From assembly GCA_016181305.1 (NCBI GenBank), contig JACOZN010000016.1, positions 1 to 24,701 on the forward strand: a DNA stretch of 24,701 bases, written 5' to 3'. Position numbers and translations under genes: made by a program. This DNA is from Candidatus Woesearchaeota archaeon. GTDB lineage: Archaea > Nanobdellota > Nanobdellia > Woesearchaeales > GW2011-AR4. Position 1 is the first letter of the stretch, and each line of letters opens with the position of its first letter. Below, piece after piece: positions 13,265-20,987 of the stretch. The notes beneath the pieces are model-generated. The model saw nothing but the letters and a program-made list of their open reading frames with translations, ran no database searches and had not been told where the DNA came from.

Positions 13265-14473
13265 TTATTTGCCGTTGTCCCCAGCCACCTTAACAGCGCT
13301 GACAACCTTGTCATTTTCTTCCAGCTTCATTATCCTGACGCCTTGTGTGTTCCTTCCGATAACGGAAATATCAGTTGATGGAACCCTTATGATAATTCCG
13401 TTCTTGCTTATGAAAATTACGTCATCATTGTCGGTTACAGGGCAGATTGCAACAACGTTGCCGTTTCTTTCGCTGCATTGGATGTTTATGACTCCCGAGC
13501 CGCCCCTGCTGATGAGCCTGTACTCAGAAATCGGGGTTCTTTTTCCATAGCCGTTTTCTGTCACGCTGAGCAATGACTTGTCATCAGATGCAACTTCCAT
13601 TCCTATGACTTCGTCATTGTCTTTCAGGCTTATTCCCCTTACGCCCTGCGCAGAGCGTCCTGTCGGCCTTACATCCCTTTCCTCGAACCTTACAGCCAGC
13701 CCATTTTTGGTTGCAAGGATAATCTGCTGGCTGCCGTCAGTCAATTCAACGTTTATCAGCTCATCGCCCTCTTCAAGTGTTATGGCAACGATTCCATGCC
13801 TTCTAGGATTGCTGTAAGCCATCAGCTCTGTTTTCTTTACAGTTCCTTTCCTTGTTGCCATCACAAGATAATGCGCATTGTCGAAGGCCCTTACAGGCAC
13901 AAAAGCTGTGACTGTTTCATTGTTTCCAAGCTCAAGCAGGTTCACAATTGCCTTGCCCCTTGCCTGCCTCCCCGCCTCCGGCAGGCTGTAGACTTTAAGC
14001 CAGTAAACTTTGCCCCTGTTTGTAAAGAACAGTATGTAGGAATGCGTGCTTGCAATGAAAATGTCCTTTACAATGTCCTCTTCTTTCGTTGTTGTTGCAA
14101 TAACCCCCTTGCCGCCCCTGTGCTGCAGCTTGTATGTCTGCAAAGGCAGCCTTTTTATGTAGCCGGAATTTGTTATCGTTATTGCCATCTCCTCATCTTT
14201 TATCAGGTCTTCAGTTTCAATATCTGCACTTTCGACCTCTATAATCTGTGTTCTCCTTTTATCATTGTATTTCTCTCTTAATTCAGAAAGCTCTTTCTTT
14301 ATTATATCAAGTATTTTCTGCGGATTCGAAAGTATCAGCTCTAATTCATCGATCAGCTTCAGCAGGCCTGCGTGCTCCTGCTTTATCTTTTCCTGCTCCA
14401 GGGACGTCAGCCTTTGCAGGCGCATTTCCAGGATTGCAACCGCCTGCTCGCTTGTCAGGTTAAAGTTTGACAT
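13265..14473 (-). CDS. gyrA: GyrA C-terminal fragment (C-gate plus beta-pinwheel with GyrA-box)
   Basis: 'QAVAILEMRLQRLT.LE', GyrA-box QHRGGKG, pinwheel repeats 'GRSAQGVRGI', 'GRNTQGVRIM'. Confidence 0.88.
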   Translation of the reverse strand: MSNFNLTSEQAVAILEMRLQRLTSLEQEKIKQEHAGLLKLIDELELILSNPQKILDIIKKELSELREKYNDKRRTQIIEVESADIETEDLIKDEEMAITITNSGYIKRLPLQTYKLQHRGGKGVIATTTKEEDIVKDIFIASTHSYILFFTNRGKVYWLKVYSLPEAGRQARGKAIVNLLELGNNETVTAFVPVRAFDNAHYLVMATRKGTVKKTELMAYSNPRRHGIVAITLEEGDELINVELTDGSQQIILATKNGLAVRFEERDVRPTGRSAQGVRGISLKDNDEVIGMEVASDDKSLLSVTENGYGKRTPISEYRLISRGGSGVINIQCSERNGNVVAICPVTDNDDVIFISKNGIIIRVPSTDISVIGRNTQGVRIMKLEENDKVVSAVKVAGDNGK

Positions 14474-14520: not shown

Positions 14521-15714
14521 TTATATCGCATTGTTTATGTTTGCTAATGCAATAATAAGCCCTTCAAGAATGTGGGCCCTTGTCTGAGCCTTGTTCAAAT
14601 CAAACAATGTCCTTTTCCTTACAACATCTTTTCTGTGCTCTATGTAATGGTGGATTAGCTGCTTTATGTTCAGTATCTTTGGCTCGTTATTGACAAGCGC
14701 AAGCATTATTATCCCAAAAGTTGTCTGCATCCTTGTATGCTGGTATAGCTGGTTAAGCACAACATTTGAATCAGCGTCCTTTCTTAATTCAATTACAATT
14801 CTTATGCCGTGCCTGTCGCTTTCATCCCTCAAGTCCGCAATCCCCACAATCTTCTTGTCCCTTACAAGATCAGCCGCTTCCTCCAAAAGCTCTGACTTGT
14901 TGACCATGAATGGTATTTCATTTACAATAATTACTGGCTTGTTCTTGCCATGCTCAATGCTTGTTTTCGCCCTTACAAGTATTTTTCCTCTTCCTGTTGA
15001 GTACGCCTCTTTTATGCCTGCTCTGCCGCAGATTAAAGCGCCTGTCGGAAAATCCGGGCCCTGAATGGCTTGCGTCAGCTCTTCAATGCTTATGCTGGGG
15101 TTGTCTATCTGCATTACAGCAGCGTCAATAATCTCGCCAATATTATGGGGGGGGATGTTTGTTGCCATCCCGACTGCAATGCCCGAGCTTCCGTTAATCA
15201 ATAAGTTTGGGAGTTTTGAGGGCAATACAACAGGCTCTGTTGTGCTGCTGTCAAAATTCGGGACGAACCTTACAGTTTTCTTGTCAATGTCGTCGAGCAT
15301 CTCCTCTGCAAGCCTTGTTAACCTGCATTCTGTGTACCTCATTGCAGCAGGCGCATCGCCATCAACAGAGCCGAAATTTCCCTGCCCGTCAACAAGCATG
15401 TAGCGCATTGAGAAATCCTGGGCCAGTCTGACAAGAGTGTCGTAGACTGCTGCGTCACCATGCGGATGCAGTGCACTTATCACCCTTCCCACAACAAAAG
15501 CGGATTTCCTAAATGGTTTATCATGCATTAAACTAGATTCCCACATAGCATATAGCACGCGCCTATGCACGGGCTTAAGACCATCCCTTACATCTGGCAG
15601 TGCCCTCCCAACAATAACACTCATAGAATAATCCAAGTAGCTTTGCTTCATCTCGTCTTGAATAACCCTTGGCACTATTCTTGTGCCTAATTTTTGCCCT
15701 GTTTCTTCTGTCAT
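14521..15714 (-). CDS. gyrA: GyrA N-terminal breakage-reunion fragment
   Basis: '[28 protein letters not shown]', HPHGD, catalytic 'AAMRYTE', '[18 protein letters not shown]'. Confidence 0.9.
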
Positions 15715-15834
15715 TTTTGATAGAATTTTCAAACTACTTTATCGTCAATAAAATGGTGTATTTTATGGTTTATAAGGGTTATGGTTTAGATATATTTTCT
15801 ATATAGTAAATTTCAATATGGAAAAGAAGTAAAT

Positions 15835-18075: not shown

Positions 18076-18162
18076 TAAGTATTAGTAGTGTCTTTATAAA
18101 TATTATTCTATAGTAATATTTGTAACGAAACCTATTTAAACGCGCCATGATGCGCCTTGGTA

Positions 18163-18804
18163 ATGAGAAAAATAATCAGCTTTATTCTTTCCAAGGAAAA
18201 GAAGTTTCTCGAGATGCTTTCCAGCCAGTCTGAAATTGCTTTAGAGGCTTCAAAAATGCTGAAAGATTTTGTTGATGAATATCCGGGCTTGCAGAGAAGC
18301 GAAAGAAAATCAAGGGCACATTCAATAAAAAAAACCGGATTAAGGGCTGATGAGCTGAAAAGATCCATAGCGCTTCAGCTCGAGAGCAGCTATGCAGTTC
18401 CCGCAAACAAGGAGCACATAGCAAGGATTGCCGCTCTTCTCGGAGAGATATCTGATTTGGCAGGCCGCACGGCATTGATGCTTGTTATTTTAAGCATAGA
18501 GAGGATTGACGGCTACGCAGCAAAGATGGCTGGGATGGCGCACAGCATAATTGAGGAGACAAGCAAAGGCGTAAAAAGCCTTGGAAAGCCCAAAAATATC
18601 AAGGAGCATTGCGAAAGGATATACGGCCTCGGGGCTGAAGCAGGCGAAATCTATAATGAGGCCCTGTCTGAATTGTTTCATTTCTACAAGAACTCAATCG
18701 ACATAATAAAATACAGGGAGATTTACCGGCTTCTTAAGGCTGCCGTGGACAAGTGCAGCGAGACTGCTGAAATTCTGGAGCTTATTGCCGCGAGGCATTT
18801 TTAG
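18163..18804 (+). CDS. DUF47/PhoU-like phosphate transport regulator homologue
   Basis: All-helical; 'AD.LKR.I..QL.SS..VP...E.I..I..LL..I.D', 'IIKYREIY..L...VDKC'. TATA box (GAAACCTATTTAAA, 18127-18140) supports ATG 18163. Confidence 0.8.
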   Translation: MRKIISFILSKEKKFLEMLSSQSEIALEASKMLKDFVDEYPGLQRSERKSRAHSIKKTGLRADELKRSIALQLESSYAVPANKEHIARIAALLGEISDLAGRTALMLVILSIERIDGYAAKMAGMAHSIIEETSKGVKSLGKPKNIKEHCERIYGLGAEAGEIYNEALSELFHFYKNSIDIIKYREIYRLLKAAVDKCSETAEILELIAARHF

Positions 18805-19518
18805 CTACCTCTTCCATATCAATATTATGTTAAGCAAAACAGACAAGGTTAAAAGAAAAGCCATTATCATTCCCTTTGCCTTTTCATTGGATGACTTGTA
18901 AACAACTTCAGGTTGTTTTATCGCATATGTTGTTGCCTGCAATTGATGGCTTTTCTGATTGTTTTTATTATTGAGTTGGATAACATTATCTGTTTCTTCT
19001 CTTGCTGTTGGCTGCTTGGATTTTGTTGTTATTGCATTCTGGCTTGTTGGAGTTTGCTCTTTGCCATTTATTTTGTTATTAACCGCTTCCTGATTTTCAC
19101 TTTTGCTTTTTTTAGCCTTTGTTTCTTCATTTTTGCCTTTTATCTTTATCTCCTTAATGTCTTTGTTGTTACCCTTGTCTCCGTCATCGCACTGGACACT
19201 TACTTCTGCAATTATCTCATAGCTGCCTGGCTTGAGGTTTGGAGTGTACTCATTTGAGGTTTTTTGCCTTGATATGGGGGCGGAATTCCACGGCTTGTAG
19301 CTTTTGGCTGTTTTTCCATCTGACTTTATTTCAGCAGTGCCTGTTATGTTTGTCGGAGGCCCGTCAAGCTTTGTAGCCTTCATGCGCCACTTGAAATCCT
19401 CCTTTTCAAATTCGCTGCCATCAGCAAGTATTTCAACCTTGTAGTCGCATGCCTGCTGAGCAAAAACTCTGCAGGAAAGAAGCATTGCAAAGGCAACGGC
19501 AATGGCTAAACTCTTCAT
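18805..19518 (-). CDS. Exported, C-terminally membrane-anchored protein with Ig/CARDB-like domain
   Basis: Signal peptide, beta-rich domain ('YEIIAEVSVQCDDGDKGNN'), K/Q/T/N-rich linker, C-terminal TM helix plus WKR. Confidence 0.75.
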   Translation of the reverse strand: MKSLAIAVAFAMLLSCRVFAQQACDYKVEILADGSEFEKEDFKWRMKATKLDGPPTNITGTAEIKSDGKTAKSYKPWNSAPISRQKTSNEYTPNLKPGSYEIIAEVSVQCDDGDKGNNKDIKEIKIKGKNEETKAKKSKSENQEAVNNKINGKEQTPTSQNAITTKSKQPTAREETDNVIQLNNKNNQKSHQLQATTYAIKQPEVVYKSSNEKAKGMIMAFLLTLSVLLNIILIWKR

Positions 19519-19643
19519 TGAATGAGATTTTGCCGTATGCTATTTATTTTTTATGAAAATACCAGTTTGGCCATATTACCATTAAATAATGCTAACAAAA
19601 GTTTTAATAACAACTGCCTTATATATTTAATAGGGTGTGTTTT

Positions 19644-20291
19644 GTGGGTTTTTTGAAGTTCTTAAAGAGAGGAAAGAAGGAAAGTTCAGACGAGCTGGAT
19701 CTGCCTCCTGCACCTCCTCCATTGGAAGGCTTTGAGGAGGGCTTGCAGGATATGCCTGAACTGCCGCCTTTTGACGAGAAGATTTCAGCTCCGAAGGACA
19801 GCAGCTTTGATTTTCCTGAAGATAAAATTCCCGGCTTTGGCAAAGAGGAATTTCCTGATTTTCCGGATTTCCCTGAGCCTGAAGAGAAATTCACTGCTCC
19901 GGTAAGCGAGCAAGTGCCGCAGGCAGAGCCTATTGCAGCAATGCCGCAGCTGCCTGAGCCAGAGCCTGTGGCTCCGATGCCCGAACAAGAGGAGCCTGAG
20001 GAAAAGACAAGCTTCATGCCTGAGCCAAAAATCGAGAGGAGGCTTTTCAGCCATGAAAAAAGGGCAAGAGAAACGCCAAAAACCATCTATGTAAAGGTCG
20101 ACAATTTCAAGGCAACCCTTGGAAACATAAGCATGGCAAGGGGTAATTTGAGAAAATCAGAAGAAGCGCTTGCGAAAATGGAAAGCATAAAAAGCGCAAA
20201 AGACAAGTCATTTGACAAAATAAGAACGTCCCTTGACGACTTGCAGAAGAAGCTTGTATACGTTGATAAAATATTATTCAAAGGTGATTAA
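19644..20291 (+). CDS. Hypothetical: amphipathic N-terminus, acidic Pro-rich linker, C-terminal 65-aa coiled-coil domain (triad gene 1)
   Basis: Probable start GTG 19644 after a GGGTG SD, giving MGFLKFLKRGKKE. The C-terminal domain aligns without gaps to the next two genes. Confidence 0.8.
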   Translation: MGFLKFLKRGKKESSDELDLPPAPPPLEGFEEGLQDMPELPPFDEKISAPKDSSFDFPEDKIPGFGKEEFPDFPDFPEPEEKFTAPVSEQVPQAEPIAAMPQLPEPEPVAPMPEQEEPEEKTSFMPEPKIERRLFSHEKRARETPKTIYVKVDNFKATLGNISMARGNLRKSEEALAKMESIKSAKDKSFDKIRTSLDDLQKKLVYVDKILFKGD

Positions 20292-20346
20292 AACGAAAGT
20301 TTTAAGCACCTCCAAAATTATTAAAATTTTTGACAGGTGAGTAAAA

Positions 20347-20586
20347 ATGAGGGAGCAGAAAGGAATGCCGGTTTTCGTGAAGGTTGATGAGTACAAGGAG
20401 ATTCTCGACGTGCTCGATATGGCAAAAGCCAAGATAAAGGAGATTAGGGACACATTGGGTAGCATAAATTCCCTGCGCAACGAGGAAGACGCGGAGCTTG
20501 CCATGTGGAACAGCACAATAAATGAAATTGAGAAGAAGATAGAAAGCATAGACAAGATAATGTTCGAGCCGGAACAGGCATGGTAA
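20347..20586 (+). CDS. Hypothetical 79-aa coiled-coil protein (triad gene 2)
   Basis: GGTGA SD at 20336-20340; 'PVFVKVDEYKEIL...IDKIMF'. Confidence 0.85.
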   Translation: MREQKGMPVFVKVDEYKEILDVLDMAKAKIKEIRDTLGSINSLRNEEDAELAMWNSTINEIEKKIESIDKIMFEPEQAW

Positions 20587-20987
20587 AGGAAAAAGAGGAA
20601 GACAGCGGGCTTTTTTTCGTACAGATTAAAGAGCCTGCTGAAGTGAGGAGGAACATACTTGAAACCCTCAAAGAGATAGTTGAAGTCCTGAGGAGATTTG
20701 AGAAATTCAGGCACATAAGGCATGAAAAGCTGCAGAAAATACAGCACCTCAGGGTTTTAATCAGGCAGGCAAACAAGACGCTCGGAGTTCTGAAGGCAAA
20801 GCTGCCTCAGACGAACTTAAGAGCCACTGTTGTGAGGGAAGCCCAGCCCAGAAAAATACACCACAAAAAAAAGAAGAAGGAAAAGCACGCCGAGCCTGAG
20901 AAAGCTCCGAAAAAAGAAATGACTGAAGCGGAAAAGCTGGAAGCAGAGCTTAATGCCATAGAAAGCAAGCTCAAGAATCTGGCTTGA
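20580..20987 (+). CDS. Hypothetical coiled-coil protein with basic/charged tail (triad gene 3)
   Basis: Overlaps gene 2 by 7 nt; 'FFVQIKEPAEVRRNILE...LKAKLP'; C-terminal helix 'EKLEAELNAIESKLKNL'. Confidence 0.85.
   Translation: MVKEKEEDSGLFFVQIKEPAEVRRNILETLKEIVEVLRRFEKFRHIRHEKLQKIQHLRVLIRQANKTLGVLKAKLPQTNLRATVVREAQPRKIHHKKKKKEKHAEPEKAPKKEMTEAEKLEAELNAIESKLKNLA

Follow-up and report, generated by a model that had tools for sequence, protein, structure and literature searches.

Three adjacent genes of a Candidatus Woesearchaeota archaeon (DPANN), here called P1, P2 and P3, were found to form a conserved, tightly coupled triad that encodes an undescribed protein family, represented neither by a Pfam family nor in the literature. 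The genes lie in a stretch of 24,701 nt (contig JACOZN010000016.1, assembly GCA_016181305.1), the whole of which is referred to as the window. In the interpretation preferred here, to which slightly less than an even chance is given, the triad would be an operon that stands on its own and has its own regulation, and its products would assemble at the inner surface of the cell membrane into a hetero-oligomeric coiled coil with parallel, in-register helices.

Gene layout and upstream control region

The three genes and the signals recognized around them were as follows:

19576..19595, + strand: operator-like imperfect palindrome TTACCATT-AAAT-AATGCTAA, directly 5' of the putative promoter
19596..19610, + strand: BRE/TATA-like element CAAAAGTTTTAATAA, conserved in the stacked upstream regions and in the matrix consensus
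19633..19637, + strand: Shine-Dalgarno-like GGGTG, 6 nt 5' of the P1 GTG start
19644..20291, + strand: P1 gene, 215 aa, GTG start; amphipathic polybasic N-terminus, Pro/acidic linker and C-terminal coiled-coil domain
20335..20340, + strand: Shine-Dalgarno-like AGGTGA, 6 nt 5' of the P2 ATG
20347..20586, + strand: P2 gene, 79 aa; the domain alone, acidic
20580..20987, + strand: P3 gene, 135 aa; start codon ATG, 7-nt overlap with the 3' end of P2

All three open reading frames proposed in the first-pass annotation were present on the plus strand with the extents given there, and the 65-aa stretches quoted from them were exact. The GTG was assigned as the P1 start because homologues begin with MGFLKFLK, and GGTG or GGGGTG was found at the equivalent place 5' of P1 in homologous loci. 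The conserved and tightly coupled triad that had been anticipated was borne out, with the order kept in ~100 Woesearchaeales loci (P1-P2-P3 in 30/30 loci of one set and in 74/80 of another). Most intergenic gaps fell between −7 and +18 nt, and start and stop codons often overlapped (~100 loci); the spacing between P2 and P3 was −7 to +15 nt in 103/104 loci. Such gene coupling is typical of subunits that are produced in a fixed ratio.

Between −65 and −79 relative to the P1 start, the pattern YACYATTNNNNAATRNT (at most 1 mismatch) was detected in 73/100 triad loci (expected 0.005). The palindrome was also the sole strong site of its kind in its own genome, scoring 28.7 bits compared with 19.2 bits for the next best, and the adjoining BRE/TATA-like element probably acts as an archaeal promoter. 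In other genomes, exact copies of the palindrome preceded thyX (twice), a TrmB-family regulator, a methyltransferase, a radical SAM enzyme and unknowns, sites that were too few for a conclusion on a regulon. The TrmB orthologues of the own genome carried different upstream palindromes.

Architecture and kinship of the three proteins

Within P1 and P3, the following parts were distinguished:

19644..19679, + strand: P1 residues 1-12, (M)GFLKFLKRGKK, candidate membrane-targeting amphipathic helix; hydrophobic moment 0.71-0.76
19680..20063, + strand: P1 residues 13-140, acidic, Pro-rich linker of variable length; 128 residues, of which 27 are Pro and 34 Asp/Glu
19689..19721, + strand: P1 residues 16-26, DELDLPPAPPP, conserved LDxPPPP motif inside the linker
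20085..20279, + strand: P1 residues 148-212, putative strand-plus-coiled-coil domain, paralogue of P2
20613..20807, + strand: P3 residues 12-76, extended segment followed by a long basic helix, with layout and heptad phase as in the P1 C-terminal domain (P1C) and P2
20808..20924, + strand: P3 residues 77-115, Lys-rich disordered linker; pLDDT 45-57
20925..20981, + strand: P3 residues 116-134, conserved acidic amphipathic C-terminal helix ELExLExELxxIExKLxxL

The anchor-linker-domain layout ascribed to P1 in the first-pass annotation was confirmed and was conserved across the family. The motif M[GA][FL][LF]xxFKKKK, which we take to be close to the membrane-targeting sequence of MinD, was kept at the N-terminus, and no transmembrane segment was found in P1 (maximum KD19 = 0.38); residues 1-12 would bind the membrane as an amphipathic helix. 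P24 and P27 were invariant in the P1 family alignment, and a PPxP motif occurred within the first 60 residues of 97/110 family representatives. The linkers of the P1 family ranged from 15 to 336 aa (median 120) and contained 19.5% Pro and 14% Glu. Ten long family members (288-425 aa) were examined for fusions to other domains; no Pfam domain was detected in them, and only their linkers were longer.

P2 was the most conserved of the three, with a mean pairwise identity of 0.49 (P3 0.35, P1 0.29), and its AlphaFold2 monomer (pLDDT 87.6) was a single helix from residue 13 to 73. Its net charge was −3 to −10 in 30/30 homologues, and residues E47, D48 and W54 were invariant. The AlphaFold2 monomer of P3 showed a helix at 19-74, disorder at 75-115 and a second helix at 116-134; across the family, the P3 linker varied in length and was basic on average (+5), and the C-terminal helix had a mean charge of −3.2. 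In one P3 homologue (L016), a C2H2 zinc finger was observed in the linker. The earlier statements on composition held, with net charges of −12 for P1 including its 128-aa linker, −6 for P2 and +13 for P3. The family mean charges were complementary (−6.6 for P2, +4.3 for the N-terminal helix region of P3 and about 0 for P1C), and the linkers of P1 and P3 were of opposite charge across the family.

The three proteins had been described as paralogues sharing one 65-aa domain, and this was upheld for P1 and P2 but not for P3. Residues 148-212 of P1 aligned without gaps to residues 9-73 of P2 with 17/65 identities (BLASTP E 4e-11), and the hhalign profile comparison of the C-terminal 70 aa of P1 with P2 gave a probability of 99.5% (E 9e-23). 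As judged by sequence comparison, the C-terminal domain of P1 and P2 are true paralogues, far beyond chance. P3 was identical to P1 or P2 at 10/65 positions, other gapless offsets also giving 9-10, and BLASTP of P3 against P1/P2 returned no significant match. The claimed register of P3 was recovered by hhalign at 10-19% probability with a score of 18.65, compared with 18.06 for reversed P3, and 6/40 heptad-block shuffles reached the score. Because reversed or heptad-shuffled P3 scored as well, paralogy of P3 is unproven, and at the level of sequence its likeness to P1 and P2 is that of generic coiled coils.

In layout, P3 matched P1C and P2, having an extended N-terminal segment, a ~56-residue helix, the same heptad phase and the same polar layer. 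P1C, P2 and P3 all had a 3-4 heptad core that began at position 8/11 and continued without interruption to 64. The all-hydrophobic columns named in the first-pass annotation (22, 29, 32, 43, 46, 50, 53, 57, 60, 64) proved correct, as did the polar columns 36 and 39 in all three proteins, and these columns are part of that core. Polar position 39 is occupied by E47 in P2 and by K50 in P3, both of which are invariant. Of the leading beta-strand, the non-helical N-terminal segment was seen in the AlphaFold2 monomers of P2 and P3, and this segment may form a strand.

The absence of a characterized family was corroborated by searches of Pfam, NCBIfam, PDB, PADLOC and PHROG. No Pfam family, PopZ and SepF (PF04472) included, was matched by P1-P3 to E 10, and PF04472 was absent among 50 domain sequences as well. 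Sequence-profile searches of the PDB returned generic coiled coils only (E ≥ 0.07), a Foldseek search of the PDB with the P3 model returned no match, single long helices being uninformative, and PADLOC/PHROG gave only weak coiled-coil matches (E ≥ 0.002). No ribbon-helix-helix (RHH) or other DNA-binding family was matched by the 80 member sequences scanned (E up to 0.1). No SNARE-motif family rose above threshold, the only related match being that of one member to the N-terminal domain of syntaxin 6 (E 0.017). Snf7 was matched neither by P1-P3 nor in the own genome (78% complete), and the MIT domain (PF04212) passed the cut-off in 0/61 phylum genomes, with one sub-threshold match, and was absent from the own genome. 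P1-P3 contained no hydrophobic segment or C-terminal transmembrane anchor (maximum KD19 0.42) and no cysteine, and no paper naming these proteins was found. Memberships in SepF, ESCRT-III/MIM and SNARE were rejected, as no SepF-domain, Snf7, MIT-partner or SNARE-family match was obtained.

Distribution, predicted complex and possible roles

The system was nearly universal and single-copy in its phylum, to which all genomes surveyed belong; P2-like genes were detected in 286/301 sampled genomes and P3-like genes in 259/301, adjacent in the places listed, and the exhaustive homologue search yielded 3839 clusters without taxonomy. Given that DPANN genomes are tiny and that the set was kept in about 90% of the sampled phylum genomes, coupled and with its own control site, it is almost certainly central to these cells. 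A defense or phage identity is disfavored because the distribution is near-universal and single-copy. The flanking genes varied among triad loci: homologues of the own flanking genes (PhoU_div, membrane protein, surface protein, HTH, ScpB) were absent at 30 short loci, and the recurrent neighbors at 85 further loci were an LTD surface protein, RNase J, PhoU_div, PHO4 and a radical SAM enzyme. The neighborhood yielded no coherent theme and no functional clue. A neighborhood link to ftsZ, sepF or cdv was not found, none of these lying in the flanks (about 110 loci for ftsZ/sepF).

Prediction of the three-chain complex P1C+P2+P3 weakly favored the heteromer proposed earlier, P3 included: the median ipSAE was 0.45, compared with 0.03 for the best control, a value that the prediction tool rated as weak support and that lies in the range (≤ 0.60) where most of its passes prove incorrect unless the complex was likely beforehand. 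The runs agreed in at least 84% of contacts with partner pLDDT of at least 68, and one of the three runs scored 0.08. The heteromer and its geometry, the membrane binding and any cellular role are inferred. In the proposed mechanism, the amphipathic polybasic helix at the N-terminus of P1 would bind the membrane, and a flexible acidic Pro-rich tether (128 aa) would carry the 8-heptad helix of the P1 C-terminus. This helix would in turn pair with acidic P2, its paralogue, and with the basic P3 helix. Short N-terminal strands may cap the bundle, and P3 would serve as the output end, with a Lys-rich tail and a conserved acidic terminal helix that could reach a partner or a polyanion. Our best guess is that such a complex would organize the division apparatus or the cell envelope. 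Points against this preferred interpretation are the canonical FtsZ1/FtsZ2/SepF set already encoded by the genome, the degenerate N-terminal motif of the N. equitans orthologue NEQ121, the calibration of the complex score, the generic coiled-coil likeness of P3 and the uninformative neighborhood.

A narrower role as a division adaptor is considered unlikely; here P1, with P2 and P3, would tether or organize one of the two FtsZ rings, in the way that CdpC serves FtsZ1 in haloarchaea and SepF serves FtsZ2. The own genome encodes FtsZ1, FtsZ2 and SepF elsewhere (SepF on contig C5), and every one of the Nanoarchaeia genomes tested had two FtsZ and one SepF. This complement, together with the fact that CdpC is reported only across haloarchaea, leaves room for another FtsZ1 anchor in the phylum, and both the near-universal single-copy occurrence of the system and the layout of P1, which is that reported for CdpC and also that of SepF and ZipA, speak for the adaptor. 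[quoted passage not shown] On this account CdpC resembles P1 in layout only, as a lineage-restricted archaeal protein with an amphipathic N-terminal helix, a fast-evolving long linker and a conserved C-terminal domain, whereas P1-P3 are cysteine-free and the C-terminal domain of P1 consists of one coiled-coil helix, for which two further proteins would be the partners. SepF has an amphipathic N-terminal targeting sequence, a linker and a small oligomerizing domain, a layout to which P1 would correspond, its conserved amphipathic, polybasic N-terminus being a candidate targeting sequence; but the PF04472 domain of SepF is absent from P1-P3 and a genuine SepF is encoded elsewhere in the genome. 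The SepF domain adopts an alpha/beta fold rather than a long helix. ZipA of gamma-proteobacteria, with its membrane anchor, charged Pro-rich tether and C-terminal binding domain, offers an analogy only; it is anchored by a genuine transmembrane helix, its C-terminal domain is globular, and no sequence match of ZipA to P1-P3 was found. The adaptor is opposed by the lack of ftsZ or sepF linkage in about 110 loci and by the lack of zinc fingers or any Cys in P1.

Alternatively, and again with low probability, the proteins would act in the manner of PopZ, as a hub or as a scaffold for condensates in the cytoplasm, in which the P1 N-terminus is a partner-binding peptide, the linker a spacer and the helices an oligomerization module; the acidic Pro-rich spacer would then tune the material state. 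Caulobacter PopZ has a short N-terminal helix, a disordered region rich in Pro/Glu/Asp and a C-terminal helical oligomerization domain, which the three-part layout of P1 matches; the conserved LDxPPPP motif looks like a ligand of a binding domain, and the opposite charges of the P1 and P3 linkers also count in its favor. However, the P1 N-terminus is hydrophobic and polybasic, which favors acidic lipid surfaces, and no Pfam family, PopZ included, was matched at E ≤ 10; PopZ is moreover a single, cytoplasmic, bacterial protein with no sequence match to P1-P3. A nucleic-acid or chromatin complex, possibly autoregulated through the palindrome, is quite improbable. Its N-terminal strands would pair as an RHH ribbon, the motif xVxVxVDExxxxL presumably resembling the strand and first helix of RHH proteins, and the Lys-rich tail of P3 would bind DNA or RNA. 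A dedicated conserved palindrome does adjoin the TATA box, and P3 is strongly basic with a poly-Lys tail, the zinc finger of L016 also fitting such a role; but RHH and other DNA-binding matches were lacking among the 80 members, the AlphaFold2 helix is continuous over ~60 residues with no helix-turn-helix pair, and the same palindrome type before thyX and a TrmB-family gene elsewhere points to a separate transcription factor. Equally small is the chance that no single complex exists and that three homo-oligomeric coiled coils with roles of their own are adjacent by co-regulation only. The weak heteromer support with one failed run and the lack of demonstrable kinship of P3 to P1/P2 would agree with this; the strict order with frequent start/stop overlaps over ~100 loci, the conserved charge complementarity and the placement of the invariant P2 E and P3 K on one core layer argue for a joint assembly.

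A SNARE- or ESCRT-III-like fusion or remodeling device, with the P3 C-terminal helix as a MIM1-type motif for a Vps4-like ATPase, was largely refuted and is extremely unlikely. The SNARE-like size mentioned in the first-pass annotation stands as an analogy only: the helix is SNARE-like in length and has a polar central layer, but there is no C-terminal transmembrane anchor and no SNARE or Snf7 family match. The start MGFLKF..KK of P1 resembles some ESCRT-III proteins, and the end of P3, IExKLxxL, fits what we take to be the MIM1 consensus; against this, no MIT domain passed the cut-off in 61 genomes and no Snf7 was found in the own genome (78% complete), and the MIM1/Vps4 reading of the P3 C-terminal helix was rejected on these two grounds.

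In its widest form, the preferred membrane-associated complex would be an unrecognized core machine of Nanoarchaeota, namely a membrane-tethered heteromeric adaptor that evolved independently of SepF, ZipA and CdpC and acts as the missing anchor or organizer of one FtsZ ring or of the host-contact zone, for which we see a slim chance. To our knowledge, no anchor of FtsZ1 has been described outside haloarchaea and few studies have addressed how the cells of DPANN symbionts work, and a membrane adaptor for division or the host-contact zone, if true, would fill a known gap.

The two-gene form and its orthologues in Nanoarchaeum equitans

N. equitans and 5 genomes from other orders were found to have a two-gene form, in which a gene for an anchor-linker-domain protein is followed by P3; this form looks ancestral. 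In N. equitans it consists of the chromosomally adjacent NEQ121 (Q74N93) and NEQ123 (Q74N92), which are genuinely homologous to the anchored domain protein and to P3, respectively. They differ from the triad in having no separate P2 and in the degenerate N-terminal motif of NEQ121. A homologue search with NEQ121 gave no match except NEQ121 itself; both genes carry locus-tag annotation only, and literature naming them was not found apart from a proteomics table. The proposals made here are testable, since P1-P3 are small, cysteine-free and easy to express, and since N. equitans is cultivated and both orthologous proteins were detected in its proteome, with adjusted spectral counts of 79/80 for NEQ121 and 51/80 for NEQ123 (PMC3149612, Table S1).

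The P1-P2-P3 operon and its neighbourhood

Three open reading frames were found on the + strand at exactly the coordinates claimed by the first-pass annotation, in a window with archaeal DPANN-type gene content in which aIF5B, Trm1, RtcA, GyrA and ScpB are also encoded. The nearest public relative, with 99% P2 identity, is labelled Candidatus Woesearchaeota RIFCSPHIGHO2_02_FULL_40_54. The three genes were as follows:

19644-20291, + strand: P1, 215 aa, GTG start
20347-20586, + strand: P2, 79 aa
20580-20987, + strand: P3, 135 aa, ATG overlapping the P2 end by 7 nt

The GTG start of P1 was fixed because homologues begin with MGFLKFLK, and a GGTG-type ribosome-binding site was present ahead of both P1 and P2. 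P1-like, P2-like and P3-like genes occurred in this order in 30/30 same-order loci (phmmer on ORFs), the P1-like gene being weak or undetected in two of them, both from one genus, and in 74/80 further loci of public genomes. The spacing was mostly -4 to +18 nt between P1 and P2 and -7 to +15 nt between P2 and P3, with numerous overlaps. No conservation of the flanking genes was found across the loci compared, and the operon was therefore regarded as a self-contained unit. Across the phylum, P2-like sequences were detected in 286/301 and P3-like sequences in 259/301 sampled genomes (tallies that take in two unpublished genomes, G243 and G244, on which no conclusion depends), mutually adjacent in the places listed. 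An exhaustive profile search for the domain (E up to 1e-3) returned 3839 clusters (50% identity); among the 150 listed matches, the domain either occurred by itself as a protein of 72-84 aa or lay at the very C-terminus of one of 94-425 aa.

A PhoU_div (DUF47) gene (18157-18804, + strand) lies upstream of the triad, as in 19/85 other loci, and is often accompanied by a PHO4 phosphate transporter (8 loci); the two are probably an unrelated neighbouring pair. On the - strand, 18805-19518 encodes a protein of 237 aa whose N-terminus resembles a signal peptide and whose C-terminus carries a hydrophobic anchor. This ORF had no Pfam match and no homologue in 30 related short loci, and looks like a variable surface protein beside the conserved operon. 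The Woesearchaeota-specific operon, with P2 identity of 75-88%, also occurs in many MAGs titled 'uncultured Methanosarcinales archaeon (binchicken...)' (loci L037, L044, L048-L050 and others), and this organism label looks like a placeholder or mislabel. The neighbouring - strand ORFs at 13265-14473 (402 aa) and 14521-15732 (403 aa) were also noted; the latter, the one scanned of the two, matched positions 1-353/432 of the DNA gyrase/topoisomerase IV subunit A family, and gyrA looks split into two ORFs here.

Relationships among the three proteins

The proteins had been proposed as three paralogues sharing one gapless 65-aa domain. For P1 and P2 this was borne out: P1 (148-212) and P2 (9-73) aligned significantly over 65 residues without gaps (BLASTP E 4e-11), and profiles of 28-30 orthologues matched over 74 columns (probability 99.5%, E 9e-23). 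For P3 the proposal was not confirmed, its score being no better than controls. BLASTP of P3 against P1/P2 gave no significant match, the identity was 10/65 where unrelated offsets yield 9-10, and hhalign recovered the proposed register with a probability of just 10-19%. The hhalign score of real P3 was 18.65 compared to 18.06 for reversed P3; heptad-block shuffles averaged 14.7, with 6/40 at or above the observed value, and free column shuffles averaged 10.2 with a maximum of 17.6. The likeness of P3 to P1/P2 is therefore no greater than that of a generic coiled coil of the same phase, and P3 may be either a very diverged paralogue or an analogue, as judged from these comparisons.

All columns annotated as hydrophobic were hydrophobic in P1, P2 and P3, polar core positions 36 and 39 were present in each, and a heptad core with 3-4 spacing ran unbroken from position 8/11 to 64 in all of them. 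In AlphaFold2 models made with alignments, P2 consisted of a non-helical N-terminal segment and a single continuous helix (13-73; mean pLDDT 87.6), and P3 of a non-helical N-terminal segment, helix 19-74, a disordered stretch rich in Lys and a final helix (116-134). The common layout was confirmed by this heptad core together with the single-helix models.

Two genes only were found in five genomes from other orders of the class. The first encodes a protein of 127-174 aa that has MGLFxxKKK, a proline motif of the LP..FPELP type, and a P2-like domain on a short linker; the P3-like gene follows directly. The same pair in Nanoarchaeum equitans is NEQ121 and NEQ123. The two-gene pair looks like the ancestral form; P2 would then have arisen by a domain duplication confined to the window's order, and P1, the anchored copy, would have diverged more quickly afterwards (mean pairwise identity 0.31 for the P1 C-terminal coiled-coil domain, P1C, vs 0.49 for P2). 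Table S1 of PMC3149612 records both NEQ121 and NEQ123 as detected in the N. equitans whole-cell proteome, with adjusted spectral counts (co-culture/purified cells) of 79/80 for NEQ121 and 51/80 for NEQ123, and gives no arCOG, signal peptide or transmembrane domain for either. A literature search found no paper text naming either protein. Two genes upstream of NEQ121 is NEQ119, whose annotation is MinD-type ATPase; it was the sole division-related neighbour in any locus seen and may be there by chance.

Known systems and the proposed complex

No family passed for P1-P3 in Pfam, NCBIfam, PADLOC or PHROG, and PDB sequence profiles and Foldseek gave no match. Scanned singly, 80 member sequences showed scattered coiled-coil matches only and no recurring family; the atlas clusters of the family are 'hypothetical', lack a Pfam family and come from Nanobdellota. 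SepF membership was rejected, as the SepF domain is absent from P1-P3; a real SepF and two FtsZ are encoded elsewhere in the same genome, and also in five other Nanoarchaeia genomes. A SNARE identity was likewise rejected for proteins with neither membrane anchor nor family match. The P3 C-terminal helix fits the MIM1 consensus; the ESCRT-III/MIM1 reading was discarded, with the MIT domain above cut-off in 0/61 genomes and no Snf7 in the window's own genome (78% complete). CdpC has the same layout as P1, but its defining zinc fingers are absent here (bioRxiv 10.64898/2026.07.16.738847).

At the N-terminus the P1 family keeps a motif that is both hydrophobic and polybasic (hydrophobic moment up to 0.76), with LDxPPPP directly after it; the C-terminal helix is kept as well. 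Its linker, of 15 to 336 residues with about 20% Pro and 14% Glu, is by this variable length and composition the signature of a tether, not of a folded domain. The N-terminal motif comes close to the membrane-targeting sequence of E. coli MinD; no transmembrane segment was found in P1, P2 or P3. Charges were conserved and complementary: P2 is always acidic, the P3 helix basic and its terminal helix acidic, and the linkers are acidic in P1 and basic in P3. Counting from the N-terminal strand places two invariant residues, E47 of P2 and K50 of P3, in one core layer, as would be required for a parallel in-register heteromer containing a buried salt bridge.

In a prediction with three chains (P1 138-218, P2 and P3 1-82), P3 was the chain scored and the verdict was 'weak support': ipSAE had a median of 0.45 (runs 0.46, 0.08 and 0.45) vs 0.03 for the best control. 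By the tool's calibration, a pass at or below 0.60 is more likely to be false than true, except where the guess was already probable. The runs agreed on no fewer than 84% of contacts, and the partner pLDDT was 68 or higher. The prior for predicted P3 binding to P1C and P2 was considered fair in view of the strict operon and coupling. The bundle would be about 8 heptads long, P1 would suspend it from the membrane's inner face, and the P3 basic tail and acidic terminal helix would form the end meeting a partner. By analogy, division or envelope organisation is our best guess for the role, because the layout is common to SepF, ZipA and CdpC and the FtsZ1 anchor is open in the phylum.

A palindrome upstream of the operon

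Two elements were located ahead of P1:

19576-19595: imperfect palindrome TTACCATT-AAAT-AATGCTAA, abutting a BRE/TATA-like element
19596-19610: BRE/TATA-like element, directly after the palindrome

The palindrome pattern occurred at -65 to -79 in 73/100 loci vs 0.005 expected. The triad palindrome was the only strong site in the window's own genome, and across 25 further genomes of its order exact copies were enriched relative to a reversed-pattern control. The palindrome type (TTACTATTCTAAAATAGTTA) was found upstream of thyX in two genomes (loci L131, G038:C1, and L135, G071:C18), and in a third (L129, G009:C1) a related copy lies ahead of a TrmB-family regulator gene; some exact copies precede other genes. 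This distribution suggests that a separate transcription factor with a small regulon may act at the palindrome. One P3 homologue (locus L016, G148:C4) carries a C2H2 zinc-finger insertion in the Lys-rich linker (Pfam zf-C2H2 E 9e-4, zf-C2H2_6 E 2.5e-4), which hints that the P3 tail may meet nucleic acid.
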